This document shows, one piece after another, positions 1-50,450 of a DNA stretch of 64,000 bases. Origin of the DNA: Nitrososphaeria archaeon (lineage in GTDB: Archaea; Thermoproteota; Nitrososphaeria; JACIWG01); assembly GCA_963752255.1 (NCBI GenBank), contig CAVVXT010000007.1:1-64000 (forward strand), read 5' to 3'. Each line of letters starts with the position of its first letter. Position 1 is the first letter of the stretch. The notes below the pieces were generated by a model. The model was given only the letters and a program-made list of their open reading frames with translations, was not told the origin of the DNA and did not search any database. Made by a program: the position numbers and the translations under genes.

Positions 1-647
1 TGGGGCAGGAAATAGACGCAGTTTTCTCCCAGCAACACCAGGTCGGTGCGGCCATCGCCATTCAGATCGCCGGTGCAGAGGCGCGTTGGCCGAGAGCTGG
101 CCGTCGTCAATGGGCCAGCGTTTGGGGGCGCTCCAGCCGTTGGTGCCCTGGTTGTAGAGCACGATCAGTTCCCGGGGGTCGCCGTAGTAGGCGATGTCGG
201 GCCGGCCATCGCCGTTCAAGTCGGCGACGGCCAGGGAGGAGATGCGTTTCTCGGAGGCGATGGATTCGATGCGGAAGCGGGCATCGGGCGGCAGCTCGTT
301 CGGCTCGCGTTTGCCTGCGGGCTTGGGCTTTTGCGGTCAGGTTGGTCTTGCCGGTCTGGTTGTAGAGCAGGTTGATCCTGGAGCGGGCATTATTGACCAC
401 GATGATGTCGTTCAGGCCGTCGCCATCGAGGTCCGCCACGTGCAGTTGGCTGATCTGGCTGTCAATGGGGAATATCTCCGGGCCGGTGAAGCCGAAGCGG
501 TTGGTGTTGGTGGCGGCGGCCAGGCAGTTCACCGTGAAGCTCACGCCGGCAGCCCAAACCAACGCGCAGCCGAGCCCTGCGTCGGAACCAAGTGATAGTC
601 TTCAAGCGTGGCGGAAAATGCCAATGGGGAAGGGGGTTGGAAAGCAC
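1..647 (-). CDS. FG-GAP/VCBS repeat-containing secreted protein (partial, frameshifted; bacterial fragment)
   Basis: Repeated motifs ADLDGDGLNDIIVVN, ADLNGDGRPDIAYY and GDLNGDGRTDLVLL lie in different minus frames; the gene runs off the window edge. Confidence 0.75.
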
Positions 648-684
648 AAAGCGAAGGCCCGTTGGCCAGCGGGCCGCTGCGCGC

Positions 685-1108
685 TTACTCGCCGACGAAA
701 TGGGCGGTAATGGCGCGGGAGTGCGGCGAGCGGCGATGTTCCCAGAGGTAAATTCCCTGCCAGGTGCCCAGCGCCAGCCGGCCCTGGCTGACGGGAATGG
801 AAAGGTTGACGGCCGTCAGCGCGGTGCGCACGTGGGCGGGCATGTCGTCGTCGCCTTCGACCGTGTGCGAGAAGAGCGGATCGCCGTCCGGCACGAGGCG
901 CGCAAAGAAGCTCTCCAAATCGCGCCGCACATCCGGGTCGGCATTTTCCTGGATGAGCAGCGAGGCCGAAGTGTGGCGGAGGTGCAGGGTGACCAGGCCG
1001 TCTGGTGAAACCGTTCTGCGCAACCCAGTCCGCAACTTTGCCGGTGAAGTCGTAGAGGCCACGGCCGCGCGTGGGAATCCTTATCTCATGCAAAGCCTGG
1101 CGCAACAT
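685..1108 (-). CDS. yjbQ: YjbQ/UPF0047 family protein (secondary thiamine-phosphate synthase), frameshift near 1005
   Basis: N-terminus MLRQALHEIRIPTRGRGLYDFT (ORF 602-1108) continues in another frame as HTSASLLIQENADPDV...DDMPAHVR...LALGTWQGIYLWEHR (ORF 685-1062). Confidence 0.9.
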
Positions 1109-1117
1109 CTCGCTGAT

Positions 1118-1152
1118 AGTCTGGAGTCCAGAGTCTAAAGTCTAAAGTCCGA
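1118..1152. repeat. Heptamer tandem repeat (AGTCYRR x5)
   Basis: agtctgg agtccag agtctaa agtctaa agtccga, intergenic. Confidence 0.8.
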
Positions 1153-1172
1153 GGCAGAAGTGCAGGCTGCGC

Positions 1173-2072
1173 TCATTGGCCGCTGTCGGCGGGCTTCTTG
1201 GCGTCGAGCATCTTCTCCAGCTCCGGGTTGCGCGGGTGGCCGGCGGCCAGGGCTTTTTGGTAATGCCAGCGGGCCAGCTCCACCAGCGGCGGCTGCTGGG
1301 TGATGTAGACCACCGCGAGGTTATTGTGCGCGTTGGCGTAGCCCGGATCGAGCTGAATGGCCTTGCGCAGGGCGGTCTCGGCCGGGTCCGCGCAGGCCCT
1401 TCTCGCTCAGCGCGAGGCCGAGGAAGTTCTGGATCTGCGCATCCTGGGGATCGAGCTTTGCCGCGCGGCTGAGCGCGTCAATCGCCTCGTCGTATTTCTT
1501 CTGGCGGAACCTCAAGCGGCCCAGGACGAAGAGGCTGTAAGGGTCATCGGGCGCGAGGGCGACGGCTTGCTTGATATTGATCTCCGCGGCCTCGAGATGG
1601 TCCGAGATCGAGCTCGATCGCGGCGAGGTTGGCCAGGGTGGGAACATTCTTTTTGTCCTGCTGCAGCACCTGCAGGTATTTCTCCTCGGCTTTGTCGAGT
1701 TGTCGGTTGGCGTAGTAGGCGCTGCGCCTCGGCCACCAGCGCCACCGTGCCGGGGGGCAGCTCCTTGACCGATTTCTTGCCGCCTTTGCGATCGGCCTGG
1801 GCGAGTTTGGTTTCCGGCTGCTTGAACAGGGCCAATTCCTCGGCGGTATAAGGCACTTGCCGCGCCTCGAACACTTCGAGCCGGGCGCGCAGCGTGGCCA
1901 ATTGATTCTCGATTTCCGCCACGCGGGCGGCCGCCGCTTTGCCTTTGCGGCTGTAAAGCTCCTTGTTGGCGGCGGCGAGCTGCTTCTGCAGGTCGTCTCG
2001 TTCCCGTTCCAGTTGCTTGATCCGGGCCGCGTCCGCGGCTTTGGAGGATACGGGCCCGCCGGCTATGGCCGG
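1173..2072 (-). CDS. Tetratricopeptide repeat protein with coiled coil (5'-truncated, several frameshifts)
   Basis: TPR-like helices AEINIKQAVALAPDDPYSLFVLGRLRFRQKKYDEAIDALSRAAKLDPQDAQIQNFLG; segments fall in ORFs 1512-2159 and 1321-2307. Confidence 0.75.
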
Positions 2073-2208
2073 GGGGGCCGTGGGGGACCCTACAAAGGCG
2101 GATGCCAAAAGAGGAAAGGAAATGTTTGAGGCCTTTGTAGACAAGACGGCGGAGTTCATAGCAGAATTCAGGAGAAGACGGATACCTCCGAGAAAGGACT
2201 ATCACTGA
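2072..2208 (+). CDS. Creatininase family protein, C-terminal fragment only
   Basis: GAVGDPTKADAKRGKEMFEAFVDKTAEFIAEF resembles the creatininase C-terminal GDPxxAxxxKG motif; it begins at the GC break. Confidence 0.65.
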
Positions 2209-2370
2209 TCTTTCGAAATGAAGGTATACTTTCTTTTTTCTTTCAAAATTTTGCAGTACACTCGTTTCCACTGGAAAAACCAGTTGACGAACCCAGTACA
2301 CTTTCAAGCCATGGTCCTGTTAAGTCCGTGAGGGTTCCTTTCGCCGTGTTGGGTGTTCATGACTATCAAC

Positions 2371-3384
2371 TCAGAGGAATTTCTCGGCCCAATGACAAGC
2401 CGCTACATGGTTAGGTCTGGACTTGTCGACGTTGCGAAGGAGAGGCTCTTCAGTCCTGCATATGTCGGTGGCGTAAACGCAACGAGGATTGAAACGACAT
2501 CCTGCTGGGGGGTTAATCGCGTTGGGGATCTCTCCACGCGGAATTGTCTTTTCCCTCTTCGCGGAGGGGTCTGGTACTGGAACTGCAGCCAACAAAGCCC
2601 TGGTGTAAGGATGGAGAGGGAGGCCGAATACGTCCTTGGTGTCGCCCATTTCGGCTATCTTTCCAAGGTACATGATGGCTATCCTATTGCAAAGGTATTT
2701 TGCGACCGCAAGGTCATGGGTTATGAAGAGATATGTCAATCCCAGCTGTGTGTGCATCCCGCGCATTACGTCGAGGATCTGTGCCCTTACCGACACGTCC
2801 ACCATGGCTACGGGTTCGTCAGCCACCACATAGTCTGGATGAGTCACCAAGGCGCGCGCGATGACCACTCTCTGCTTCTGCCCGCCGCTGAGGTTCTGAG
2901 GATATCTCTTGTATATCTCGGCAGCGGGGACAAGGCCCACATACTCGAATATCTCTAGGACGCGCCTCCTTGCTTCTTCATCGTCTGCGGATTCTAGAAG
3001 CTTCAACGGGTCGGCCACGGCGTCTCCCACCCTCATCTTGGGGTTCAACGATGCCGTGGGGTCCTGGAAGATGATTTGCATTTTCCTCCTTAGCTTTCGG
3101 ATGCCGTTGGAGTCCAACTTGCCTAACTCGATGCCGTCCAAGGTTACTTTGCCGGAAGTGGGCCGAATCAGGCCGATGGTCAAGCGACCCGTGGTAGTCT
3201 TCCCACTCCCGCTCTCTCCTACGAGGCCGAATATGTCTCCCTTGGCTAGCGAAAAGGTCACACCGTCCACCGCCTTGACGAAGCTTTGATTCCGAGAAAG
3301 CAACTGCTCAAGGAGCCCATGCTGCACGGGGAAGTACTTCTTGAGGTCGACGACTTCGAGTAAGGGCAAATCTTGATCACCCAT
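2371..3384 (-). CDS. Oligopeptide/dipeptide ABC transporter ATP-binding protein (DppF/OppF-like)
   Basis: Walker A GESGSGKTT, LSGGQKQR signature, C-terminal HPYT and Cys cluster; start taken at MGDQDL (3384). Confidence 0.95.
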   Translation of the reverse strand: MGDQDLPLLEVVDLKKYFPVQHGLLEQLLSRNQSFVKAVDGVTFSLAKGDIFGLVGESGSGKTTTGRLTIGLIRPTSGKVTLDGIELGKLDSNGIRKLRRKMQIIFQDPTASLNPKMRVGDAVADPLKLLESADDEEARRRVLEIFEYVGLVPAAEIYKRYPQNLSGGQKQRVVIARALVTHPDYVVADEPVAMVDVSVRAQILDVMRGMHTQLGLTYLFITHDLAVAKYLCNRIAIMYLGKIAEMGDTKDVFGLPLHPYTRALLAAVPVPDPSAKREKTIPRGEIPNAINPPAGCRFNPRCVYATDICRTEEPLLRNVDKSRPNHVAACHWAEKFL

Positions 3385-4336
3385 GTAAATGGCATGCCGT
3401 TTCGGTTTCTTGATCGAGCCGTAGGAGCTTGGGGTCCTCCACCCTGCACCTGTCGAAGACATATGGACATCGAGGGCTGAAAGGACAACCTTGCGGAAGG
3501 TAGCACATGTCAGGGGGCGATCCTGGGATGGACTTCAGCAATTGGTCGTTCACAAGGATGTTAGGGATCGAATTGAGCAGGGCCTCCGTGTAAGGGTTCA
3601 TCGGATGGGAGAAGAGCTTCGCGGTTGAGGAGACCTCCATGAGCTTCCCCGCGTACATGACAGCTATCCTATCAGTGGTCTCGGCCACGACACCCATGTT
3701 GTGGGTGATGAGAATAAGCGAGACAGAATAACGTGTTTTCAGCTCCTTAAGCAGCTGCAGGATCTGGACTTCGACAATGACGTCGAGTGCCGTCGTGGGC
3801 TCATCGGCTATTATCAGCTCTGGTCGGAGGGCGATGGCAAGGCCTATCATGACGCGCTGTCTCATCCCGCCACTGAACTGATGAGGGTAATCCTCAACCC
3901 TTGACTTCTCGATGCCCAAATCTTCGAAGATCTTCCTCGCCGTGTTCAGCGCCTCAGATTTGGAGACGCTCGGGTCGTGTTCCCGAATATATTCAACGAA
4001 ATGTTGCCCGACCTTTTTGACTGGGTTTAGCGAAGACATTGGGTCCTGAAAGATCATGGCGATGCGCTTCCCACGAATCTTTCTCATTTCTTCTTCGTCA
4101 AGAGATAGAATGTCCTGGCCGTTGAAGTAGATGTGGCCACCACTAACGACACCGGGTGGGTCCACCAGTTTCATCAATGCATGCCCAATGGTGGACTTCC
4201 CGCTTCCCGACTCTCCCACCAAGCCCAGTGTGCTCCCCTTCGGGAGGATGAAGGAGACCTTGTTAACCGCTTTCACCACGGCCCCCCGAGTTCTATACTC
4301 GAGGGTCAGGTCTTGGACATCCAGCAGCTCAGCCAA
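3377..4336 (-). CDS. Oligopeptide/dipeptide ABC transporter ATP-binding protein (DppD/OppD-like)
   Basis: GESGSGKST, YPHQFSGGMRQR, DEPTTALD. Confidence 0.95.
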   Translation of the reverse strand: MAELLDVQDLTLEYRTRGAVVKAVNKVSFILPKGSTLGLVGESGSGKSTIGHALMKLVDPPGVVSGGHIYFNGQDILSLDEEEMRKIRGKRIAMIFQDPMSSLNPVKKVGQHFVEYIREHDPSVSKSEALNTARKIFEDLGIEKSRVEDYPHQFSGGMRQRVMIGLAIALRPELIIADEPTTALDVIVEVQILQLLKELKTRYSVSLILITHNMGVVAETTDRIAVMYAGKLMEVSSTAKLFSHPMNPYTEALLNSIPNILVNDQLLKSIPGSPPDMCYLPQGCPFSPRCPYVFDRCRVEDPKLLRLDQETETACHLHG

Positions 4337-4345
4337 TGCGTCTCA

Positions 4346-5236
4346 TCATCCTTGGATTCCCCTCTCGGACAGGCCTTCGCTAATGAGCCCGAAACCTAGG
4401 GCTGAGAGAAGTATCATCAAGCCGGAGAAGAAGATGACCCACCACGCTCCTAAGGGTAGGGCTGACCTTCCGTAAGTCAAGTCGATACCCCAGTCAGGGA
4501 GGTTGACGGGCAGCCCTAGGCCGATGAAGTCCAGGCCTGCTGTTGTGAGGATGGAATCTGCGAAGTTGATGGTCGCGAGCACGACGATGGAGGAGATCAC
4601 GTTAGGGAGGATGTAATGCAAAAGTATGTGACCCGTTTTGCCGCCGATAGATTTGGCAGCCTCCACATATGGGAGCTCCTTAATCGTGAGGACCTGGCTC
4701 CTTATGACACGATAGTAGGACGGAACGTACACCACAGCCAGAGCGATGGCTTCGTTGATCACGTTCACCCCAAAGATGCTGATGATGACTATGGCCAGCA
4801 CGAGGCTCGGAAAGGCGTACACGCTATCCATGAGCAAAGAGATTCCTTTGTCCAGAAAGCCGCCCCAGTAGGCTGATATCAGCCCGATAGGCACGCCTAT
4901 CGAGAGGCAGATGAGCACTGCGGTGACCGCCACAAGGAGGATGAACCTTCCGCCCCAAAGCGTCCTGCTCAACAGGTCACGACCGTAGAGATCAGTTCCC
5001 AGGGGGAAAGCAGTGCTGGGCGGCGAGTTGGGCGGACCTAGCGCTATCTGGGTCGGGTCATGTGGCGATATGTAGGGAGCGAGAAGACTCATGGCGGTTA
5101 TGAATATGACAATCGCGGTACCCGCGAAGATGAAGACTCTTCCAGAGCCCGGGCCGAATGTGGACCTGAACAAACTCATCACCCGAGGCATCAAACCGAA
5201 GTACTCCTTGCTGCTTTTGTTGGTCAATTGTATCAC
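4346..5236 (-). CDS. Peptide ABC transporter permease (DppC-like)
   Basis: PLGTDLYGRD and EAAKSIG (EAA loop), multiple TM segments. Confidence 0.95.
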   Translation of the reverse strand: MIQLTNKSSKEYFGLMPRVMSLFRSTFGPGSGRVFIFAGTAIVIFITAMSLLAPYISPHDPTQIALGPPNSPPSTAFPLGTDLYGRDLLSRTLWGGRFILLVAVTAVLICLSIGVPIGLISAYWGGFLDKGISLLMDSVYAFPSLVLAIVIISIFGVNVINEAIALAVVYVPSYYRVIRSQVLTIKELPYVEAAKSIGGKTGHILLHYILPNVISSIVVLATINFADSILTTAGLDFIGLGLPVNLPDWGIDLTYGRSALPLGAWWVIFFSGLMILLSALGFGLISEGLSERGIQG

Positions 5237-6264
5237 AACCTGATCCTCGGATCAAAATATGCGTATAGGACATCGACAATGAGGCTGACCACCGATATCA
5301 TAAGGGCTAGGAAGACTACAGTCCCTTGCACGGCCGTATAGTCTCTAAAATTGATGCGATCGACTAGGTAGGTCCCCAAACCCAATATGTTGAACTCCGT
5401 CTCAGTCAACACAGCCCCGCTGAGGAGCAGGGCGAACTGGAGCCCCATTATGGTGACGATGGGTAATAGGGCGTTCCTAAGCGCGTAGCTGTAGACGACG
5501 GTATTCTCCTTCAGGCCCCTGGCCCTGGCAGCGGTGACGAACTCCATTTTGAAGGTCTCGATCATGTTGCTGCGTGTCATGCGAACGAATACACCAGATA
5601 TGACGAGGCCTAATGTGACGGAAGGCAGGAGGAGATACTTCAGAGCGAGGAAGAACTGTCCAATGTTGCCCGCTAGCAGGCTATCCACCGTGTACAAACC
5701 GGTCTGCAGGTGGAAGGAACCTATCGTCAGTCCCTGCGGAATGATGCCCGTAGGCATCCTTCCCCCAACGGGGAGGATGTGCAGCCAAATCCCGAAGATA
5801 AGCTGGAGGATCATCCCTAGAAAGAACACAGGGAAAGCGTAGATCATTATCCCGTAAAGCTTGATGCTTCCGTCCACCTTTCCATAGGGCTTCCGAGAGG
5901 CAGTGGAGCCAAAGAGTATACCCACTACAGCGGCAACGATGAACGAATAGGACGTCAACTCTAGCGTGGCGGGAAACCTCGACACTATCTGATTTGTCAC
6001 GGGCTCCAATGTGACTAGGGATTTGCCTAAATTGCCGTGGAATACTCCTACCAGGTAGTTCAAGTACTGCTGCCAAATGGGCACGTCGAGCCCTAATACG
6101 TGCCTCCAAGCGGCCATTAAAGCGGGATCTGCCGTCTTCTCGAACCGGAGGCTCACGGGGTCACCTGGAAGAACCCTCATAACAAAGAAGACAATGGTTA
6201 GGGTCAATAAGAGCATTGGTATAGTTAGGGCGATTCTAGTGAGTACGTAGGTCCGGAGGGTCAA
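5233..6264 (-). CDS. Peptide ABC transporter permease (DppB-like)
   Basis: LPGDP, GNLGKS, TAARARGL, RNALLP motifs. Confidence 0.95.
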   Translation of the reverse strand: MTLRTYVLTRIALTIPMLLLTLTIVFFVMRVLPGDPVSLRFEKTADPALMAAWRHVLGLDVPIWQQYLNYLVGVFHGNLGKSLVTLEPVTNQIVSRFPATLELTSYSFIVAAVVGILFGSTASRKPYGKVDGSIKLYGIMIYAFPVFFLGMILQLIFGIWLHILPVGGRMPTGIIPQGLTIGSFHLQTGLYTVDSLLAGNIGQFFLALKYLLLPSVTLGLVISGVFVRMTRSNMIETFKMEFVTAARARGLKENTVVYSYALRNALLPIVTIMGLQFALLLSGAVLTETEFNILGLGTYLVDRINFRDYTAVQGTVVFLALMISVVSLIVDVLYAYFDPRIRL

Positions 6265-6304
6265 TAAAAAAAAACGGGGGAAGGGATTTAATAAACGTTC
6301 TGCC

Positions 6305-7963
6305 CTAAGTTGTCTCTGACATCAGCCAATATCTGAAGATAGTAGTTGGGTCTAGGACTATTCCACTCACTTTGGGTGTGCTGACGGCTATTGACGTGCC
6401 TTGGAACAATGGCACCATTGGCGCCTGGTCTGCCAGCCTTGATTGCAGCTGTGCGTATAGGGACTGTTGTTGTGTGACATTGGATGTGCTAGCTACGGTA
6501 GTCAGCAGGCTGTTTATGTTTGAATCGATGAAGCCCGTGTTAAGGAATCCAGCGCCGTTGGCCGGAAGGAACGGATAGGTGTAGTCATAGGGATCTATGA
6601 AGTCGGGGTACCAGCCGTAGATGTAGGCGCTCAACTCCCCAGATTGGGTCCTGGCTTTGTAGTCGGACCACGGAAAGTTGTTAAGGTTCACGGAAATCAT
6701 TCCCGTAGCCTCTAGGCTCTGTTTCAACGCCTGTGCGATGCCATCGGTTAAAGTGTAGTGTCCAGTCGGATAGGTCAGCGTTATGGAAAGCTTGTTGGAT
6801 GTACTGTAACCTGCCTGTGTAAGAAGCTGCTGCGCGTAGGTTATGTTTGCTTCACCGTACTTGGACTTGTATGCGTCGGTGTGGGAGAACATCCCAATGG
6901 GTATCATGCTATAGAGCGGCTCGGCTTGGCCAAGGAAGATGCTCTGGGTTATCAGTGACCTGTTGATGGCGGCTGCCACTGCTTGGCGCACAGGAAGCTG
7001 GTCGAACGGGGCTTTCTTGGTGTTGAACACCAAGTATTGGATGAACTGACCTGGTCCGACCCAGACCTTGTAGGCTGAGTTGCTGCTTAGCGATACGATT
7101 TCATTTGCCGTCAATTGCCTGTATGCGGTGTCTATCTCATGGTTCTCAAGGGCCAAGAGCAACGTGGTATCGTCTGAGTAGAACTTTATGATGATGTTCT
7201 TGGTCTTTGCCAAATCGGATGAGTTCCAATAGTTCGGGTTGGCTTGTAGGTCTATTTCGATGTCCTTGCCTGCGGTCCTTTCCCACTTGGTGAGCACGTA
7301 GTGACCTAGTCCGTTAGGATTGGAAGCGGCTAGGTTGCCCTGTGTGTAGTTCACTATTCCCCTCATGGGGGCCACCTTGGGGTTGACCGGATACATGGGC
7401 GTGAATGCTGCCATAGCTAGGAAGGCCGAGAAGGGCGCATTCAGCACGAATTGCACCTGATATGTTCCAGTCATAATCGTCTTGTTGATTATGGTGTCGT
7501 ATCCTGCACCGGCGAAGGGACCGGCGGCTTCGTCAATGGCAAACTCTCTGTCCATCGAGTACTTGACCACAGACGCATTAAAGGGTGTACCATCTGCGAA
7601 CTTTACACCCTGCCTAAGGTTAAAGGTCCATGTGAGGCCGTCTGCACTCATGCTCCAGCTCGTAGCCAAAGCTGGAACGATGTTCGTAGTTCCGGGTACG
7701 TAGTCAGCTAGGCCGTCGCCCAAGTTCTGGATGATGTTTATCCCAAAGTAGTCATAGGCATCGGCAGGATCAATGGTCGTCTGGACCGAGTCTGTTGTGC
7801 CGATGATGATCGTGTCCTTTAGTGGTGTCTGCGTATTGCTGGGCTTGTATACGTAGTAAATCCCAACTGCAGCTGCAACTATTAGGATGATTACGATTAT
7901 AATTATGCTAGTCAGTCTAGAGATTGCTTTGCGCTTGTTTTTGGACGATATTAGTCGTCTCAT
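6305..7963 (-). CDS. Peptide ABC transporter substrate-binding protein (family 5)
   Basis: N-terminal membrane anchor; PALATSWSMSADGLTWTFNLRQGVKFADGTPFNA family-5 signature. Confidence 0.95.
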   Translation of the reverse strand: MRRLISSKNKRKAISRLTSIIIIVIILIVAAAVGIYYVYKPSNTQTPLKDTIIIGTTDSVQTTIDPADAYDYFGINIIQNLGDGLADYVPGTTNIVPALATSWSMSADGLTWTFNLRQGVKFADGTPFNASVVKYSMDREFAIDEAAGPFAGAGYDTIINKTIMTGTYQVQFVLNAPFSAFLAMAAFTPMYPVNPKVAPMRGIVNYTQGNLAASNPNGLGHYVLTKWERTAGKDIEIDLQANPNYWNSSDLAKTKNIIIKFYSDDTTLLLALENHEIDTAYRQLTANEIVSLSSNSAYKVWVGPGQFIQYLVFNTKKAPFDQLPVRQAVAAAINRSLITQSIFLGQAEPLYSMIPIGMFSHTDAYKSKYGEANITYAQQLLTQAGYSTSNKLSITLTYPTGHYTLTDGIAQALKQSLEATGMISVNLNNFPWSDYKARTQSGELSAYIYGWYPDFIDPYDYTYPFLPANGAGFLNTGFIDSNINSLLTTVASTSNVTQQQSLYAQLQSRLADQAPMVPLFQGTSIAVSTPKVSGIVLDPTTIFRYWLMSETT

Positions 7964-8155
7964 TGTTTATTGCATATTTAAATCGTATATTTAAATGTTA
8001 TTAGGGATACAAAATCCTGAATTTATTATTATTAGGGATGCAATGATCGTTATGTAAGGATGATGTTAGATTACCTATATCTTCGGTCATTTTTTCTTTA
8101 CTTCAGTTGTGGTATTGCGACTGCTTTCGAGTAGTCTTTCCCGATTGTTACAGCC

Positions 8156-38269: not shown

Positions 38270-38293
38270 GTGCTCCGGCCGGGATTTAAACCC
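38270..38293 (-). repeat. att site: duplicated tRNA-Glu 3' end
   Basis: 23 of 24 bases match 50450-50473. Confidence 0.88.
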
Positions 38294-38500
38294 TAATTTA
38301 CTAGTAAATTATTAGGAGGATAACTGCTTTCGAATTCGGTGGGATTTGAACTAATTTGGGTTTAAGTCTGCATCGTTATACAACTGTACTCCATAAATTC
38401 GTTGAATATGTCGCAGGCTCTATAAATGTTTTAAATTTTTGGATATTTAGAAAGGTTTAAAACCGTCCAATCATTCAATCAGATTTAAAATGGTGACCGT

Positions 38501-39676: not shown

Positions 39677-39875
39677 CTAGTTTTTTATGATATAAGATAG
39701 GAAGAGCTAGGATCACAACTAAGATTAGTTAGCTGTTTCTATAGCTTCTCAGTTGTCTAAGCCATTGATAGCTTATGCTCTTAGTGAGATAGCCTCCTTT
39801 AACGGTGTAAAATCTGTTAGGACACATATCTATCAGTTTTTAATAGTGGTCCTCCTATTTAAAGAAGCCCTTATT

Positions 39876-39953
39876 CTTCAATCAAATAGAGATTTCTTAA
39901 TTTCTATGCCCTTGATCTTGATATAGAGTTCGTCTGCTCTCCATGTGTCGCCA
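39876..39953 (-). pseudogene. IS6-family transposase fragment
   Basis: Translates to IGDTWRADELYIKIKG, nearly the same as VGDTWRADELYVKIKG in the transposase at 44815. Confidence 0.8.
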
Positions 39954-40020: not shown

Positions 40021-40299
40021 CTATCTTCTGATTGATGCAATTATCTTCCCGTTCGCATTGTCTCTCACGTTTATCTGCTGGGGGTGCACCTCAAAGTTGA
40101 CATAGCTTAGACAGTCCATAGATTCTTGACTTACCTCTCCATCTGGGCTTCCTGTCGCACCTATTGCAATCAGAACTTTAGAAGCACGCCTGCTCTTTGG
40201 CACACCATTCTTCGAAAGGTATCTTACTACTTCTCTCCTCGTGTAGAACTTCACTCTTTGTTCACACTGTTCGTTGGATGACATACCATTTCCTAACAT
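40021..40299 (-). CDS. Hypothetical protein
   Basis: 92-aa ORF with upstream TATA-like element; no motif recognised. Confidence 0.55.
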   Translation of the reverse strand: MLGNGMSSNEQCEQRVKFYTRREVVRYLSKNGVPKSRRASKVLIAIGATGSPDGEVSQESMDCLSYVNFEVHPQQINVRDNANGKIIASIRR

Positions 40300-40336
40300 T
40301 TATCGAGTGGAGTACTATATAAAGGAAGCTCGGTCT

Positions 40337-40388
40337 GGTTCTGTTAACTTATCGGCTCGTCAATCTTGGTGTTAACCGTCGGCTCATG
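40337..40388 (+). repeat. Left terminal inverted repeat (52 bp)
   Basis: ggttctgttaacttatcggctcgtcaatcttggtgttaaccgtcggctcatg. Confidence 0.95.
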
Positions 40389-40404
40389 TCATTTTGTCGG
40401 AGGG

Positions 40405-40815
40405 CTAACCATGAATGTCTTTCAATCTTGTCTTTAGCAATATTTTCTTTCCATCCTTGAAAACAATCTTAGCGTTGTCATCTTCCTTTCCAGCGGGTAT
40501 TCGATATAATCCTGTTCCGTTTTCAAGGATATACTTGGCATGCTCCCTGTTGTTTTCACAAAGGAGACTTTCTCCATTGTAAAGGACAATAAAATCTGCG
40601 ATTGCCTTAGTCGGGCGAACTTCTATCGCTTTGTTACTTGCAATAGGTTCTGTAACTATCGACTTCCTTATGGTAGGATTAATCAGAATTTTCTCTTTCT
40701 GTTTCTCCCTTCTCATTTTTATAGTCTCAAAAATTATGCCTACCCAAATCCCAATAGCTGTAATAATACTTGCTATAATCCCAATAGATGTAAGGTCAAG
40801 ACTTACCATAGGCAC
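40405..40815 (-). CDS. Hypothetical protein with N-terminal TM helix (cargo)
   Basis: One hydrophobic helix followed by a beta-rich soluble part. Confidence 0.7.
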   Translation of the reverse strand: MPMVSLDLTSIGIIASIITAIGIWVGIIFETIKMRREKQKEKILINPTIRKSIVTEPIASNKAIEVRPTKAIADFIVLYNGESLLCENNREHAKYILENGTGLYRIPAGKEDDNAKIVFKDGKKILLKTRLKDIHG

Positions 40816-41028
40816 ACCTAATTAAGATACAGAACCCAATGGTTAAAAGGCTTAACTCACACACAAATTTTATATTACGGCTTACCAATTAATATTTGAA
40901 CAATTTGGAAAAAAAAGAAGTTGAACCCCCAGATAAAGAAGTAAAAGAGGTCAAACTCCCAGATAAAGAAGTCAATTTAATGATTCCGCACTTATTCGAT
41001 TGAGTTTTTCCTTCTAATGCTTAAATAT

Positions 41029-41499
41029 TTAAAAATGGAAGATTAATTTTATTATTTCTTGATAGATAACAATAATTAAGAGTGAAATATAGAATAGTAT
41101 AAGCCAATTTTCAGCTTTTGGAAAAAGTGAGAATTTAAGATAATAATAGATGGGTATAGTCAGAAGGAAACTAATGGAAATAACAATTAGCTGTATAGAC
41201 GCAGGAAGATTAGCAAGGTTAGGTATTTTAAGGATTAATGAGGAAATGAAGATTAATGTATAAATCATTAAAGTGAACCAAGATAATAATTTTAAAAATG
41301 CCTCATTATATGAATAGCTCATAAAATGTCCGAAAGACCAGAAAGAAAAAGAGAAGATTATCATAACTGAATAGATTACGAAACTAATCCAATATTGTTG
41401 ATAATCTTTTAGAAGCCCTATTGAGATAGTAAGTATTATTGTTGTAACCAAAAACAATAATTCAAAAACCTTATCAAACTTCTCAATTGGTTTCGGCAA
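41029..41499 (-). CDS. Hypothetical multi-pass membrane protein (cargo)
   Basis: About five hydrophobic segments; very AT-rich. Confidence 0.7.
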   Translation of the reverse strand: MPKPIEKFDKVFELLFLVTTIILTISIGLLKDYQQYWISFVIYSVMIIFSFSFWSFGHFMSYSYNEAFLKLLSWFTLMIYTLIFISSLILKIPNLANLPASIQLIVISISFLLTIPIYYYLKFSLFPKAENWLILFYISLLIIVIYQEIIKLIFHF

Positions 41500-41550
41500 C
41501 TAAAATCAACATTAAAGTTGATAATCTTATAATCATTTAAACTTTATAGA

Positions 41551-42552
41551 CTAACAAACTTCATTGCCTTGCTTTCGCAAGTAATCCCAATAGCTTGTGT
41601 TTGATACAATCTTCTCAATGGCTTCTTCATCAATGTCTCCATGTTCATCTATTGGCACATGAATTTGTAACTTTGACAATTTTTCTCTGAAACATTTCCT
41701 ACCATAGGAGTAACGCCATATCTGTCGGTTGATGATGTATTGGATAAAAATAAGGGTGCTGGTTTTTAACAGTTTTTTTGGGATGCATACTGCAACATCA
41801 TCTTTAGCTGCAAATCTATAAGGATGATATTTTGTCGTCAATGGACGACCATTATAAGCTATGGTGAGAGTATTAGCGTATATCATATTTTTCGGAACAG
41901 AACAATACTTCACCAAACCATTGCCAGTTTCACCGCAAGAAATCAATGGAATCTTGCCATCAGGCAATTCAGAAGCATTATGATAATCACCACTGTGAAG
42001 TTCAAACACATCCGTGATACCAACATGAGCATACTTTAATTTTGGCTCGGGTATCTCCACCTTGTTAGTTTTGGAAGGTAAAAACTTTTGAATTGTCGCA
42101 TTTTTAAGGACATCTGCGATTTTATCCTGATCAATTTTTCCTTCATTATTTATCGGAAATAAAACGGAAAGTTTCTTGACTTTGTTCATGTAACTTTTTC
42201 TACCATACGAGAACCGCCAACGTTCCCTATTCAAATACGCAATTGTATAAAAAATTGTGGACAACTTTACACCTTCTCTTGGAATACATACCAAAACATT
42301 ATCTTTTGCAGCAAATCTATAAGGATGATAGAAACTTGTTAAAGGTGTACCATCACAAGCAATTGTAACGCAATTCTCATAAGTCTTTGGCAAAGGAATT
42401 TTGAAATATCCTTCTACTCCATGTTCTTCCGTCTTGCATGATATTAACGGTACATCACCTGATTCAAGATGAGAAGAGGCATGATAGTCGCCTGTTTTCA
42501 CTTGAGAAAAAACAGCGTCCACACTAAATCTTGAAAACTTAACTTCACTCAT
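41551..42552 (-). CDS. Restriction-modification specificity subunit (two TRD halves)
   Basis: Internal duplication GDYH...PLISC...YHPYRFAAKD...WRxSYGRK; directly downstream of the N6-methyltransferase. Confidence 0.88.
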   Translation of the reverse strand: MSEVKFSRFSVDAVFSQVKTGDYHASSHLESGDVPLISCKTEEHGVEGYFKIPLPKTYENCVTIACDGTPLTSFYHPYRFAAKDNVLVCIPREGVKLSTIFYTIAYLNRERWRFSYGRKSYMNKVKKLSVLFPINNEGKIDQDKIADVLKNATIQKFLPSKTNKVEIPEPKLKYAHVGITDVFELHSGDYHNASELPDGKIPLISCGETGNGLVKYCSVPKNMIYANTLTIAYNGRPLTTKYHPYRFAAKDDVAVCIPKKLLKTSTLIFIQYIINRQIWRYSYGRKCFREKLSKLQIHVPIDEHGDIDEEAIEKIVSNTSYWDYLRKQGNEVC

Positions 42553-42553
42553 T

Positions 42554-44498
42554 CTAAGCCCCCCCTTCATGTGAAGTGCGAATCAAATAGGCTACAACAT
42601 CTCGCACAGTTTCCTCAACGCCTTTTTGAATATCATTCAGTGTTGGAACATTCTCATCTAAATAAGCCTCTGAAATCAACTCAAGCTCGGTATCATCGAA
42701 ATCAATTTTTGAGATTTTTTGAGACTCTGGAATACTCTCAACTTGAATATGTGGGTTCATGATGAAGGACTGTACCAAACCTTTAACTCTTTCAAGGTCA
42801 GTGGGGACGTTAGGATCGGCTTTGAGATCAGGAAGACGCTTTCCTTTGATTTTCCGATACCCATCATTTGTTATCTTAATCCAGAGAACACCTTGTTCAT
42901 GAGGGTGTGGATAACCCTTTCTGACGATTATGCCAAGAGAGGGCGGTTGTGATTGTGGGTAAAAGAGGTCTTCAGCGAAAGTAATTACAGAGAGAAGCGT
43001 GTTTCCAGCTAACAGATTTGACCTCCATGACTTGTATACACTTCCTTTGACCATTGTAGAACATGGCAATATAGAGAAAAGCAATCCCCCATCTTCCATT
43101 TGTTCTAATGCATGTTCTATGAAATCGAACTCTTTCTCATTACTTTTTTTCAATGCGAAAGGTGGATTCATCAAAACTTTTGTAATTGCCCTTTGTTCAT
43201 TCTTAACATCTCGTGAAACGAACTTTGCGGACGGTTCAGAATTGATGGTTGTAGCCACAATGCCTCGTGCAAAACAGTTGTCATTAATAATATTGTTTTT
43301 TCCATCTCCTCGAAATATCATGTTGGTTATTGCAAGTGTTGCAACACTTGACTGCAAGTCTACACCGAATATTCGATAAAGCCTAAATGCGTCAAGTTGT
43401 GATTGATTTGAGTTATTTTTCACATGATAAAAACTTGATACCAGAAATCCCCCTGTCCCGCATGTCGGATCGTAAATAACATCTTTGTGCGTGATATTCA
43501 AAACATCAGAAGCAAACTCCGTTATATGTCTTGGAGTTAGAACTATGCCCAAATCCTTTGCACCATTTCCGTATTTTAAGAATGCTTCGTAGAATCTACC
43601 TAATACATCAGAACCTGTCCTCATGGCTGCTTTTATGTTAACTTTCCGTAGTATAAAGAAACCTTGCACCAAAGCCTCTTTGAACCTATTCTTGGCATCC
43701 TGCTTTTCTGGCAATTGTATTTCTATATACTTAAAAAAGTCTTCCTTTCCATTCTTTTTTAATACTTCTTTTGCTCGAACGTTAATATCATTCACGAAAA
43801 CATCAGGGTTGTCATTATAATTCGGTTCAGTTTCCCCTAAGAGTGAAAGAAGCATTGTGGCAACTATGGTTGCTCTTTTATCCTTTCTTATTCCTGCCTC
43901 ATGAAATTTTTTGTTAATGTCATCAGCAGCTTTCAGCAATAGGTCGTCAAGAATATCAAATTCCTTTAAGATTGACGTTTTCTCATACATCAACCTCTTA
44001 GCAATCTCAGGAGTGAGAAGGCTCGTTATTTCCTTTCCTTCATATATTATAGGATGAAACTCCTTTTTTTCTTCAACCCAAAAAGCGTTTCTTACAAGAT
44101 ATTTGTCAATGTCATTTCCTGCTATACCAGTAACAATCATTGCCTTCACAAATTTATGATCATTAAGCAATGTGCCATACCATTTCGCTTCGCTGAACGC
44201 TTTTTCTATTTCCTCAAGAGTTGGCTTTGCTTCAATTACCCAAAAGGCATCTTCAGCTAATTTTACTACATATTCAGGGTGCAGTTTTACCCATTTGCTC
44301 GCAATCTCTCTGTTTTGATGACATTCGTTTTGTGTGTATACTTGCCCATTTGGATCTCTGTTAGGGTTGTTAACATTCCATCCTTTGTCTAAGCTCATTC
44401 TTGATGTAAGTGTAGGATTGAAATTCAGAATCTAAAGATTTTCTTCTCTTTTTTATTACTGCATCCTGTCCTTCAAAAGTTTTTTGGGATTCAACCAT
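42554..44498 (-). CDS. Fused restriction endonuclease / N6-adenine methyltransferase (Type IIB BcgI-like), frameshift near 44391
   Basis: PEYVV...VIEAK nuclease-like motif, LTPRHI, YDPTCGTGGFL, MNPPF; upstream frame from ATG 44498 (…DSEFQSYTYIKNEL) shifts into DKGWNV. Confidence 0.85.
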
Positions 44499-44504
44499 AA
44501 CTTT

Positions 44505-44705
44505 TCATCCTTCCCTTAACGGTTCTACTATAATAGCCATTTTTCCGTTTATTACGTTGATTTGCCATTTAAGTTTATCCCCTTCTCTTAAATGAAACTG
44601 TCTCACAAAACCTATGGGAATTGTAGTTCGCAGAGATTTACTTTTTGTGGTTGCTACCGCTATTGTTGTGATTTCTCCTTCTTGGTCTTTTGATTGGTTC
44701 GCCAT
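44505..44705 (-). CDS. AbrB/MazE/SpoVT family DNA-binding protein
   Basis: SKSLRTTIPIGFVRQFHLREGDKLKW. Confidence 0.88.
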   Translation of the reverse strand: MANQSKDQEGEITTIAVATTKSKSLRTTIPIGFVRQFHLREGDKLKWQINVINGKMAIIVEPLREG

Positions 44706-44707
44706 CG

Positions 44708-44814
44708 CTTACCTATGGATAGGTGCCTACCTATAAACTTACCTATTAGATTACCAATAGATTTACCTAAAAATTTATATAGTTAGGTAATCATATAGGT
44801 ATGGCGATAGGTAA
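44708..44814. promoter_or_regulatory. Divergent promoter with symmetric TACC/GGTA operator array
   Basis: TACC at 44710, 44728, 44740, 44752, 44764; GGTA at 44786, 44798, 44810; dyad centred on TTTATATA. Confidence 0.8.
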
Positions 44815-45927
44815 ATGATTAACAATCTGCGTGAACAAAAAGGAAAGGAAATAGCCCAACTTGAAGGGCAAATAAAAAGGATTGACGGTCATTTATACAA
44901 AGTTAACTCCCAAAGTGGTAACGGTGTCTATGATGTTTTCAGCACAGAGTTAGGCTGGAAATGCTCTTGCCTCGACCACCAGTTTCGTGGCGTGAAGTGC
45001 AAGCATATATTCGGGGTTGAGTTCTCACTTGAATTAAGACGAGAGGTCGAAAACTCTATCATAATCAAGCCAGTAAGCATTCAAATATGTCCTGAATGCC
45101 AATCTAATGATATTGTAAAGCATGGTATAAGACACAATGAATCAGTTGACATTCAGAGATACTACTGCAAGGCTTGTGGTAAATGGTTCGTCATTAACTT
45201 AGGATTCGAAAAGATGCACGCCACCCCTCAAATGATAACCTCTGCCATGCAACTCTATTTCACGGGAGAATCATTAAGAAGTGTGCAGAAGTTCTTAAGA
45301 TTACAAGGCGTAAACATATCCCATGTAGCCGTCTATAAGTGGATAAGAAAATATGTAGGTCTAATGGAGAAATATCTTGACCAAATAAAGCCCAACGTTG
45401 GCGATACTTGGAGAGCCGATGAACTTTATGTTAAGATCAAAGGAAATATGAAATATCTCTTTGCACTTATGGACGACGACACACGCTTTTGGATAGCTCA
45501 AGAGGTAGCGGACACAAAATACACCCATGACGCAAGAAGACTATTCCAATTAGGCAAAGAAGCAACTGGAAAGAGACCAGAGACCTTAATCACCGATGGT
45601 CTACCAACTTACCACGACGCATACAAGAAAGAGTTTTACACCAACTATAAGCCGAGAACCGAGCATGTAAAAGAAATTCGTTTAAGCGGGGAAATCCACA
45701 ACAACAAGATGGAGAGGATGAACGGTGAAATCAGGGATAGGGAGAAGGTTATGAGGGGATTAAAGAAGGGCAATACACCAATCCTGAAAGGCTATCAGAT
45801 TTTCCACAACTATCTAAGACCGCATGAGGCGTTAGATGGACAAACCCCTGCTGACAAGTGTGGAATCAAAGTCGAGGGAGATAACAAGTGGATAACATTA
45901 ATACAGAACGCAAGTAAGAATATTTGA
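44815..45927 (+). CDS. IS6-family DDE transposase with N-terminal SWIM and Zn-ribbon domains
   Basis: SWIM CSC...CKH, CPEC...CKAC, HTH (SLRSVQKFL...SHVAVYKWIRKY), WRADE, ITDG, NNKMER. Confidence 0.92.
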   Translation: MINNLREQKGKEIAQLEGQIKRIDGHLYKVNSQSGNGVYDVFSTELGWKCSCLDHQFRGVKCKHIFGVEFSLELRREVENSIIIKPVSIQICPECQSNDIVKHGIRHNESVDIQRYYCKACGKWFVINLGFEKMHATPQMITSAMQLYFTGESLRSVQKFLRLQGVNISHVAVYKWIRKYVGLMEKYLDQIKPNVGDTWRADELYVKIKGNMKYLFALMDDDTRFWIAQEVADTKYTHDARRLFQLGKEATGKRPETLITDGLPTYHDAYKKEFYTNYKPRTEHVKEIRLSGEIHNNKMERMNGEIRDREKVMRGLKKGNTPILKGYQIFHNYLRPHEALDGQTPADKCGIKVEGDNKWITLIQNASKNI

Positions 45928-45984
45928 CAATCCTCTAATTTTTTTATTGTGGACTAAAGTAAAAAAAATTTATATATTAATTTA

Positions 45985-46356
45985 TTGAATTTACAGAAAA
46001 TGGCACTCAGTTCCGATATTATAACTGTGTTTTTACTCTTTCTTTTTATTTTTATTCCTGTTGCGGTGATATTGCTCTCTAATATTATTTATAATAAATT
46101 AGCAAGAACAGAAGAAGAAGTTGCAGTAGATTATACGGGACAGTTGGTTTCTGGGCTTGTAGCAGGTATAATAGTTGCATCTGCAACATCCTTTACAGAA
46201 CTTAGTCAAATGAACCTTAGCTTTGAAGCAAAAATAACAGTTGGTTTAGTAATTGTGGCAATCATTTTTGCTGTTATGACATTTGGATTGTATATATTTA
46301 CCAAAACCAAATCAAAAAATAAAAAACAAGAGCACACGATTTATCAGTATGACTGA
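45985..46356 (+). CDS. Hypothetical three-TM membrane protein (cargo)
   Basis: Three hydrophobic segments and a basic tail. Confidence 0.7.
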   Translation: MNLQKMALSSDIITVFLLFLFIFIPVAVILLSNIIYNKLARTEEEVAVDYTGQLVSGLVAGIIVASATSFTELSQMNLSFEAKITVGLVIVAIIFAVMTFGLYIFTKTKSKNKKQEHTIYQYD

Positions 46357-46475
46357 TATTCATAGGTTGTATAAGATTTACCCTAACCTTTTGAACCATG
46401 CACAACGAACGCAACACCAATATTTTCCTAAATCGCATGCACAATGGATACATAAGAACCGACCAAAGATTTGAG

Positions 46476-46527
46476 CATGAGCCGACGGTTAACACCAAGA
46501 TTGACGAGCCGATAAGTTAACAGAACC
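46476..46527 (-). repeat. Right terminal inverted repeat (52 bp)
   Basis: Exact reverse complement of 40337-40388. Confidence 0.95.
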
Positions 46528-46954
46528 TGGAAACGGACGTTGACAGAAGTTTATCAATGAAGCCAAAACGTCGATCTAGAACAACCGATGTGGAACTATA
46601 AGTGGTTGCAAGGAGTGTTATGAAAATAACAATACCGCAAGCTAAGAAAGAGAAGTAATCAGTTACGCCAAATACATTCGTCATTATGTGCGATTGCAGA
46701 CCACTAAAATATGTGCTTATTTGCAGGAGTTGTTGTTGAGTGGCTGGTGGAGTAATTATTAAAGCAGGAAATTGGCCAGCTGTGAATATTCCGTTTATGT
46801 TTATGCCTTTTCCAAGCAGACCCATCCATATAATAGGCTGGGCAACAGTGAGAACGAATACAACGGGATTTTTGAACCATTTTATGAGTTCACGACCCGT
46901 TAGCGCTCCCAAACCATGTAGGGGATTGTTCGAATCTCTGGCGTTGCCCGTCAT
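46528..46954 (-). pseudogene. ABC-2 (DrrB-like) permease truncated by the transposon end
   Basis: RELIKWFKNP...QPIIW...DRRFGFIDKLLSTSVSR then reads into the TIR and stops. Confidence 0.88.
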
Positions 46955-48074: not shown

Positions 48075-48169
48075 TGCCGAGGTAGCCACTTGACCAATCA
48101 AAGGGATTTCCCGCATTTTCTCTTAGAAATAACTAATGGAAAAAGGACTTAAACCCTTTTGGGTATAGG

Positions 48170-48253
48170 TCCCACCGAACTTGAACCTAATTGCCCTTCT
48201 AATAATTTACCAGTAGATTTATGCCGAAATCCCACCCCCCACACTAATAGACC
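48170..48253 (+). repeat. att-like relic: conserved flank, 18-bp box and tRNA-Leu(GAG) 3' end copy
   Basis: 48170-48220 aligns in reverse with 38294-38344; aatcccaccccccacactaat matches the tRNA-Leu(GAG) 3' end plus its flank. Confidence 0.75.
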
Positions 48254-50323: not shown

Positions 50324-50450
50324 TTTTTATTTCGTCAACTTTATTTGAATGTTTATTCATTGCTGTTTCTGACTTGTTGGTCTGCTAATTAAATCACTAA
50401 AGGTGCCAAAAATATGGTTCAAAGTTAAAAAATTTTTACCAGTAAAAAAG

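Follow-up and report, generated by a model that had tools for sequence, protein, structure and literature searches.

An IS6-related cargo transposon beside a host TATA box in a Nitrososphaeria archaeon, and its wider family

The locus and its element

We examined a 64,000-nucleotide stretch of a Nitrososphaeria archaeon genome (positions 1 to 64,000 of contig CAVVXT010000007.1, assembly GCA_963752255.1), referred to below as the window. Between positions 40337 and 46527 lies a unit transposon in which one transposase gene and six passenger genes are enclosed by terminal inverted repeats. The span is 6,191 base pairs (bp); the two arms, 40337-40388 and 46476-46527, are 52 nucleotides each, 100% complementary, and both begin with GGTTCTGT (GGTTCTG). 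From left to right, the genes encode orphan proteins of 136 and 156 amino acids (aa), a specificity (S) subunit, a fused nuclease-methyltransferase, a 66-aa AbrB-fold protein, the transposase, and a 123-aa orphan. Everything left of the transposase is on the minus strand, while the transposase (separated from the left end by 4.5 kb and from the right end by 0.6 kb) and the 123-aa orphan are on the plus strand. The features that define the element and its insertion site are as follows.

40316..40323, minus: TATA box of the host (TTTATATA) preceding the gene at 40021-40299 (minus); its offset from the left end of the element is 14
40329..40336, no strand: remaining copy of the presumed original 8-bp target, judged from the family's 8-bp duplications; the second copy is absent
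40337..40388, plus: left terminal inverted repeat, with two copies of the motif TGTTAAC-n-TCGGCTC 28 bp apart
44815..45927, plus: transposase, 370 aa, with a SWIM zinc finger (residues 1-80), a zinc ribbon (92-121), a helix-turn-helix (HTH), a DDE core (D202/D261/E300), and a C-terminal tail
46476..46527, minus: right terminal inverted repeat, same sequence as the left
46517..46954, minus: ABC-2 permease gene of the host, truncated at 46528 by the element's right end and whole in related strains

The two motif copies in each end are likely two transposase sites. Contigs of related strains follow the left flank as far as position 40336 and the right flank from position 46528, to the base, and are divergent beyond these points, so both borders are independently fixed. 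A first-pass annotation, made from the letters of the sequence, had proposed a 6191-bp block with perfect 52-bp terminal repeats, one interior 370-aa transposase, and cargo on both sides, and this outline is confirmed. The GC content of the element is 36%, compared with 41% for the genome. The element is single-copy in the 2.1-Mb assembly, where no second copy of the 6,191 bp was found and the 52-bp ends are unique; several related, mostly broken elements are also present. It is extremely unlikely that the block is an assembly chimera or a chance pairing of two ends. The missing target duplication, the unrelated flanks, and the lack of any read crossing the element would fit such an artifact, but the genome holds no other copy of these ends, which match each other at all 52 bp; related strains diverge at precisely the two border positions; and 13 of the 56 family members described below likewise have no duplication.

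Affiliation of the transposase

The best Pfam match of the transposase is DDE_Tnp_IS240 (E 9e-17); matches to SWIM and zinc-ribbon models are weak, and neither a Mutator-family Pfam match nor a full-length IS256 NCBIfam match was found. The NCBIfam IS6 model NF033587 scores 121.2 bits, below its cut-off of 125, and the IS1 model NF033558 scores 65.1 bits, below its cut-off of 100, while the zinc ribbon exceeds the cut-off of the IS1/IS1595 model NF050000. All 118 close relatives have D202, D261, and E300, which also align with the DDE residues of named IS6 members. The predicted structure (predicted local distance difference test score 95.4) has a core resembling those of integrases and TnsB (best Z 15.1, root mean square deviation 3.5, 159 residues aligned), and residues 1-78 resemble ZSWIM8 with a middling score (Z 6.7, root mean square deviation 2.7, 74 aligned). 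A sequence search found no relatives with a solved structure. The nearest transposase, from a Nitrososphaeria archaeon, is 82% identical, and no plasmid relatives covering 80% of the transposase were among the best 5,000 records.

Kinship was judged by pairwise identities and profile comparisons. Over the HTH and core, identity is 27% to ISCpe7, 25% to IS1216, 24% to IS6100, 19-22% to three archaeal IS6 members, and 21% to IS1B InsB; profile comparison gave a probability of 99.6% for IS1216 and 6% for IS1B InsB. By these sequence comparisons the transposase is IS6-related rather than IS1, as the first-pass label of IS6-derived had it, yet it falls outside the strict IS6 family because of the model scores and the 19-27% identities to named members.

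The family may already have an ISfinder entry, namely, the ISMhu11 subgroup of IS1, whose members carry passengers, but we regard this as unlikely. That subgroup has archaeal members, GGnnnTG ends, lengths of 0.9-4.6 kb, and upstream passengers, which is a loose fit, and the zinc ribbon passes the IS1/IS1595 cut-off. Against this stand the model scores (65 bits for IS1 with a cut-off of 100, compared with 121 for IS6 with a cut-off of 125) and the profile probabilities (6% for IS1B InsB versus 99.6% for IS1216). None of 10 member proteins looked up bears an ISfinder element name. The two methanogen orders associated with the archaeal members of the subgroup were searched in 110 and 125 genomes, and no close member turned up among the candidates that were scored: G190 and G293 gave only weak partial matches, and the G190 match appeared IS66-like by eye.

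A family of cargo-carrying elements

Three collection scans yielded 146 transposase loci. An unseeded search for inverted repeats around the transposase recovered GG(T/C)TCTG ends in about 22 of 66 loci. A search seeded with the end motif was then applied to all 146 loci, the window copy, and five paralogues from the same genome, and it found paired ends at 65 loci. Removing seven duplicates, L049 (a partial transposase, likely a chance pair), and L146 (the same element as L014) left 56 distinct elements of 1.9-9.2 kb (median, 3.2 kb). Because the motif seeded this search, a family-wide count of GG..G7 ends would be circular, and the unseeded figure of about 22 of 66 is the one to be read. Target duplications are 8 bp in 40 of the 56 elements, 9 bp in 3, and none in 13. 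Eleven of the 56 came from a search in which a duplication was a requirement; of the other 45, found by inverted repeats first, 32 have an exact 8- or 9-bp duplication. Paired ends surround 22 of 33 full-length transposases with long flanks. The ends are commonly two-part: 93 of 112 repeat a two-block motif 26-29 or 36-38 bp inward (0.5 in shuffles), and position 10 is A in 92 of 112.

The transposase slot is accompanied by a regulator slot. In 80 of 101 nonredundant transposase loci, a small divergent gene belonging to one of eight clusters lies directly upstream. Three clusters are AbrB-like, three are ribbon-helix-helix, one is a zinc ribbon, and one has no fold label, with several labels assigned by eye where Pfam support was weak or absent. 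The intergenic repeats differ by regulator cluster; the window copy and a 38%-identical paralogue both carry the AbrB type of the window together with seven TACCTA boxes. AbrB as a fixed partner was rejected, since a profile built from the window AbrB found only 9 of the 56 elements and the slot is common to at least eight small-protein clusters. Across the family, AbrB is one of several interchangeable regulators.

Cargo is mostly unique, with 176 proteins falling into 142 clusters. Among the 117 cargo proteins scanned (of 123 listed), 28 have a Pfam match and 89 do not. Restriction-modification genes occur in 10 of the 56 elements (one assigned by clustering only); further cargo includes proteases of five kinds, Fic, HTH regulators, and PADLOC candidate systems. 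The proposal of a distinct archaeal class of single-transposase unit transposons with variable cargo is borne out by the 56 distinct elements. The further proposal, that these elements spread antiviral genes, is less well supported: by annotation it fits a minority, most of the scanned cargo has no Pfam match, and the restriction gene of the window copy is itself frameshifted in the assembly. Relatives are numerous (5,549 matches, representing thousands of transposase clusters), with hosts among Nitrososphaeria, Bathyarchaeia, methanogen relatives, and Asgard archaea, and on one viral contig.

Several individual elements deserve mention. The IMG/VR viral contig L146 carries the L014 element, 2,937 bp long with an identical duplication; L014 itself is in a contig of a bacterial metagenome-assembled genome and is possibly mis-binned. 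Proteases are frequent cargo (proteasome-subunit-like, ClpP-like SDH, aspartyl, trypsin-like, and M6) and are found in L001, L088, L007, L127, L131, L039, L096, L108, and L117. In L019, L078, L105, and L141, an N4/N6 methyltransferase fused to a C-terminal Mrr-like nuclease lies downstream of the transposase. Genome G037 holds nine copies (L177-L183, L175, L176) of a cargo-free, SWIM-bearing insertion sequence (IS) of 1.75-1.8 kb with GATTCTCCAG ends.

Docking beside TATA boxes

The left end of the window copy is placed upstream of a host TATA box, at a distance of 13 bp, and about half of its relatives are placed likewise. To quantify this, we read offsets outward from each element end and scored a TATA motif with at most one mismatch at 57 independent sites, leaving out L039 (inverted flanks) and four sites with short flanks. 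TATA starts at offset 14-15 in 27 of 57 sites, against a mean of 2.1 and a maximum of 9 in 2,000 rounds of shuffling. Broken down by offset, the starts number 21 at offset 14, 7 at 15, 6 at 16, and 0-3 anywhere else, with a mean of 1.5 sites at nondocking offsets. The docked TATA is on the left side in 15 cases and on the right in 12, indicating that the element faces either way. Enrichment extends over all eight positions of a TBP-type box, with a tolerance like that of TBP, and AA at offsets 10-11, found in 20 and 19 of the 27 matches, resembles the TFB recognition element.

The motif and offset were fixed beforehand for a later set, from which L393 (same as L030) was removed and in which paired ends were lacking at L383, L390, and L395. 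Of the 9 SWIM-bearing elements in this set, 6 passed. We also examined SWIM-less relatives of 286-314 aa, which are about 33% identical and one of which had been part of the first set; all six with ends have a 9-bp duplication and TATA at offset 15. One example, L384 (G226:C16), is a plain 1,020-bp SWIM-less IS that has a 9-bp duplication and sits upstream of a TATA box at the 5-bp spacing. Because the offset shifts by one base with the 9-bp duplication, the constant is the 5 bp between duplication and TATA. Because SWIM-less relatives, including the plain 1,020-bp IS, dock alike, neither SWIM nor cargo is needed for docking, and SWIM was rejected as the targeting domain.

An account without active targeting would have insertions fall in accessible AT-rich intergenic DNA, with selection keeping those that spare promoters. 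The flanks are indeed AT-rich, and 30 of the 57 sites miss the strict test. However, selection alone would produce a broad zone rather than the sharp peak at offsets 14 to 16, which is shifted one base by the 9-bp duplication; the sharp spacing rules out a mere preference for open DNA, and we consider selection by itself very unlikely.

At 8 of the 57 sites, another element end directly abuts the duplication. Five different elements from different samples (L099, L100, L109, L115, L139) occupy one homologous target, whose shared flank resembles the promoter of a conserved RNA gene. By eye only, the GATTCTCCAG-ended sister group in G037 has AT-rich boxes near offset 14. L198 (G016:C1:191418-192545) is a family element just upstream of a TFB-TBP gene pair.

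How a target might be chosen

By analogy with IS26, the transposase would bind the two sites in each end and move the whole unit by replicative strand transfer. For target choice, one model is capture beside TBP-bound, bent TATA DNA, with the transposase in the place that TFB would occupy; we rate this at close to, but not quite, an even chance. The nearer of the two cuts falls where the TFB site begins on its upstream side, and by this geometry TFB is unlikely to be bound. As SWIM-less relatives dock, the search for the targeting part is narrowed to the zinc ribbon, the core, or the C-terminal tail, where it would reside instead of in SWIM. A broader version is put forward tentatively, at somewhat less than even chances: the family would dock on TBP instead of TFB and insert 5 bp upstream of TATA, building integron-like stacks of defense cargo, with a SWIM-independent docking part inherited from a plain 1-kb IS.

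A serious contender, rated somewhat below the first model and well short of an even chance, is that the transposase itself reads a TATA-like sequence or shape, or one like the TFB recognition element, with no host factor needed. The TATA box lies 10-17 bp from the target center, within reach of a DDE target-capture complex, and a full TBP-TFB complex would obstruct the near cut. The lost target side in the permease (see below) also has TTATA at offsets 15-19, in the family register, as noted by eye after the fact; the background for TTAWA is 0.0042 per position. Direct reading is harder to square with the enrichment of all eight positions of a TBP-type box, with TBP-like tolerance, and with the proposal that bacterial promoter-targeting transposases contact the initiation complex (PMC3942029).

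History of this copy

No target duplication flanks the window copy. Its right end cuts the ABC-2 permease gene after 143 codons, where the permease frames of relatives are about 300-330 aa. Near-identical strains are represented by contigs in three peat runs (two studies), and these contigs join the right flank precisely at 46528; the permease is whole in all three runs, and one common continuation, read by eye, keeps the permease frame open. On the left, contigs in two runs match up to exactly 40336 and then continue into two different sequences, which are neither the element nor the permease. The other permease half was not found elsewhere in the same genome, which contains only a paralogue; an inversion splitting the permease was rejected on this ground.

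Deletion by intramolecular (in cis) transposition has been described for IS26 (PMC7986276). Insertion at the promoter followed by an IS26-type adjacent deletion is likely, by this analogy, the simplest reading of the missing duplication and the cut permease. The element would first have inserted at the host promoter by promoter-directed target choice and later, in a replicative jump in cis into the ABC permease, would have deleted the intervening DNA to its right. In IS26 biology such a jump would leave one copy without a duplication, as at the window copy.

Overall, we think it quite probable that this is a 6.2-kb unit transposon with an IS6-related DDE transposase and two-part 52-bp ends, docked by promoter choice and altered by a later adjacent deletion. 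A number of observations pull the other way. Paired ends were not found around 11 of the 33 full-length transposases with long flanks. Thirty of 57 sites fail the strict TATA test, and while several of these are near misses or lie inside stacks, some have no TATA; the docking offset for the 57-site test was picked after the flanks had been viewed; and three of the six SWIM-less relatives come from one genus. The target inside the permease has a TTATA core only and fails the strict test. Because no read spans the element, its junctions rest on assembly, and a different rearrangement, or the assembly itself, could have brought its flanks together. Finally, transposition, its replicative mode, repression, and TBP contact are predictions from sequence and analogy.

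The first-pass annotation had the borders and content of this copy right but overlooked the TATA docking and the probable secondary deletion; the missing target duplication, the frameshift in the restriction gene, the truncated permease, and the two-part build of the ends are likewise additions to it. Its suggestion of recent activity was not borne out, as the element is single-copy and a sister element with near-perfect ends has a frameshifted transposase. This sister, L147:897-5787 (G000:C19:19396-24286) in the same genome, is 4,891 bp long with an intact 8-bp duplication, and it carries ParB, one unannotated protein, and a CAP12-type TIR protein. Its site is occupied in a same-genus genome by a different 9.2-kb element (L001).

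Comparison with known elements

The IS6/IS26 group (IS26, IS257, IS1216, IS6100) shares with the window element an HTH-DDE transposase, GG..G7 ends, and an 8-bp duplication (PMC7986276, PMC6807381), and its deletion by intramolecular transposition fits the flanks of this copy (PMC7986276). Its members are 700-890 bp long with 14-bp ends and are cargo-free inside, moving genes as two-copy structures; promoter targeting is not mentioned in the available text of PMC7986276 or PMC6807381. Measured against the strict definition, the window element has a single DDE transposase with H-HTH before the catalytic domain and a GG start with G7, while the 8-bp duplication is present in relatives (40 of 56) and absent here. 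It departs from the definition in its 52-bp two-part ends with A at position 10 (92 of 112 family ends) where 14-bp ends with G10 are expected, in its length (6,191 bp; family, 1.9-9.2 kb) where the transposase should fill 700-890 bp, and in its 19-27% identity to six named members where at least 40% is expected. It does not belong to IS1 either (NF033558 65.1 versus 100; IS1B InsB 6% probability and 21% identity).

Within the IS6 literature, the long zinc-finger members of the ISCpe7 clade also have an N-terminal zinc ribbon, and ISCpe7 is the best named match (27% over residues 75-358), but as far as described they are Clostridial elements of 1.2-1.8 kb without SWIM, and their 18-bp ends rarely start with GG. 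ISDsp3 is the single IS6 member with one passenger (Varani 2021, PMC7986276), and the available descriptions of ISDsp3 and ISCpe7 include neither a regulator nor multigene cargo. The archaeal IS6 group (ISH15, ISH17, ISSte1) is likewise DDE-type, with GG ends in many members as described, but these elements are about 0.7-0.85 kb and encode proteins of 211-237 aa with 19-22% identity to the window transposase. Harmer and Hall 2019 (PMC6807381) would exclude even these archaeal members of about 0.7-0.85 kb from IS6.

The closest analogy in behavior, with a different transposase, is with the p-MULT elements TnGBS, ISLre2, and ISKra4, which insert at a fixed 15-17 bp upstream of a core promoter element, in either orientation when their ends are symmetric, and range from IS to large cargo elements (PMC3942029). 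They differ in using bacterial sigma-A promoters, a Mutator-type transposase, and circular intermediates (PMC3942029). The window family thus keeps a fixed distance upstream of a core promoter, but from an archaeal TATA rather than a sigma-A -35 element, and without a Mutator-type transposase. For archaea, the consulted portion of Guerillot 2014 (PMC3942029) mentions only ISH6, which duplicates an AT-rich motif.

Yeast Ty3 offers a second parallel, since its integrase is a DDE enzyme that targets TFIIIB-bound genes and is placed by a TBP-containing complex, which for the present family is a hypothesis only. Ty3 is a retrotransposon with an experimentally shown tether, and it inserts at the start site, not upstream of TATA. 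The Ty3 structure is PDB 7q5b, and the analogy is also drawn in PMC3942029.

Regulator, cargo, and neighboring sequence

The remaining features of the element are listed here.

40405..40815, minus: orphan protein, 136 aa, with one N-terminal hydrophobic segment
41029..41499, minus: orphan membrane protein, 156 aa, with five hydrophobic segments
41551..42570, minus: specificity (S) subunit with two target-recognition repeats (PF01420)
42554..44398, minus: rest of a BcgI-like fused endonuclease-methyltransferase (614 aa), bearing the nuclease motif PE..EAK and the methyltransferase motif NPPF (N6-methyltransferase, PF02384)
44370..44498, minus: N-terminal piece (about 37 codons) of the restriction-methyltransferase gene, separated by a frameshift
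44505..44705, minus: AbrB/MazE-fold DNA-binding protein, 66 aa, divergent from the transposase (PF04014, E 6.5e-7)
44706..44814, no strand: promoter region between the two divergent genes, containing a TATA box and, on both strands, repeats of the TACCTA box
45985..46356, plus: orphan membrane protein, 123 aa, with two hydrophobic segments

The AbrB-fold protein is likely a repressor, and the TACCTA repeats, seven of which lie within 150 bp upstream of the transposase, are likely an operator array. The small divergent protein would repress both itself and the transposase through the repeated boxes around their shared TATA.

The restriction gene resembles BcgI-like type IIB/IIG systems, which also pair a fused nuclease-methyltransferase with a separate two-repeat S subunit, but its first 37 codons are out of frame in the assembly. 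The break is near 44398 and cuts off a conserved first helix; a 42-codon upstream frame matches this helix of homologues at 94% over 17 residues. The closest homologues include proteins of 634-682 aa or longer fusions, the PE..EAK motif is present in 110 of 120 proteins, and identity to the entry "Restriction enzyme BgcI subunit alpha" is 52%. No reads over the element interior, including the frameshift, were found in the runs examined. The frameshift may be a sequencing error; if it is real, the nuclease is probably crippled, and the methyltransferase may be made from an internal start. The first-pass cargo list of AbrB, a restriction-modification and S pair, and three membrane proteins is thus confirmed for AbrB, the pair, and three orphans (with one, five, and two hydrophobic segments), with the qualification that the restriction gene is frameshifted. 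For the family, a role in defense is plausible; for this copy, it is doubtful.

ARAGORN called no tRNA at either element end, and tRNA targeting was rejected accordingly. Elsewhere in the window, two tRNA-like stretches (38270-38368 and 48146-48233) are 70% complementary, neither is called by ARAGORN, and one is 96% like the 3' part of a tRNA-Glu at 50450; these are perhaps intron-bearing tRNAs or integration scars. Window positions 39700-39950 are noncoding and have many similar copies in a same-genus genome, as a dispersed repeat. Positions 1-8000 have a GC content of 48-65%, compared with about 41% for the rest, and are a foreign island or a mis-joined contig start.

Implications

A survey of thaumarchaeal mobile elements reported passenger-carrying DNA transposons as undetected in archaea and counted IS as elements of one or two genes; the terms "SWIM" and "TATA" are absent from its main text (Krupovic 2019, PMC6563490). 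Literature searches covering openly accessible main texts found no description of this architecture. The element described here is real and belongs to an IS6-related family of promoter-docking cargo transposons. New features that fit the data are that SWIM is dispensable for docking and that the window copy is marked by an IS26-type adjacent deletion.

Docking is likely a means of spreading defense genes and others while leaving those of the host intact. Most of the cargo is unannotated, but restriction, TIR-domain, or protease genes often fill the slots, which constitute a bounded pool of candidate archaeal defense genes. Fixed TATA docking also poses a testable question, namely, how a DDE transposase finds archaeal promoters, for which the 1,020-bp SWIM-less IS (L384) is a minimal experimental system. 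If docking on TBP proves true, the family would parallel Ty3 targeting among prokaryotes and would offer a tool for promoter-directed integration in archaea, and its cargo stacks would be harmless and reusable.

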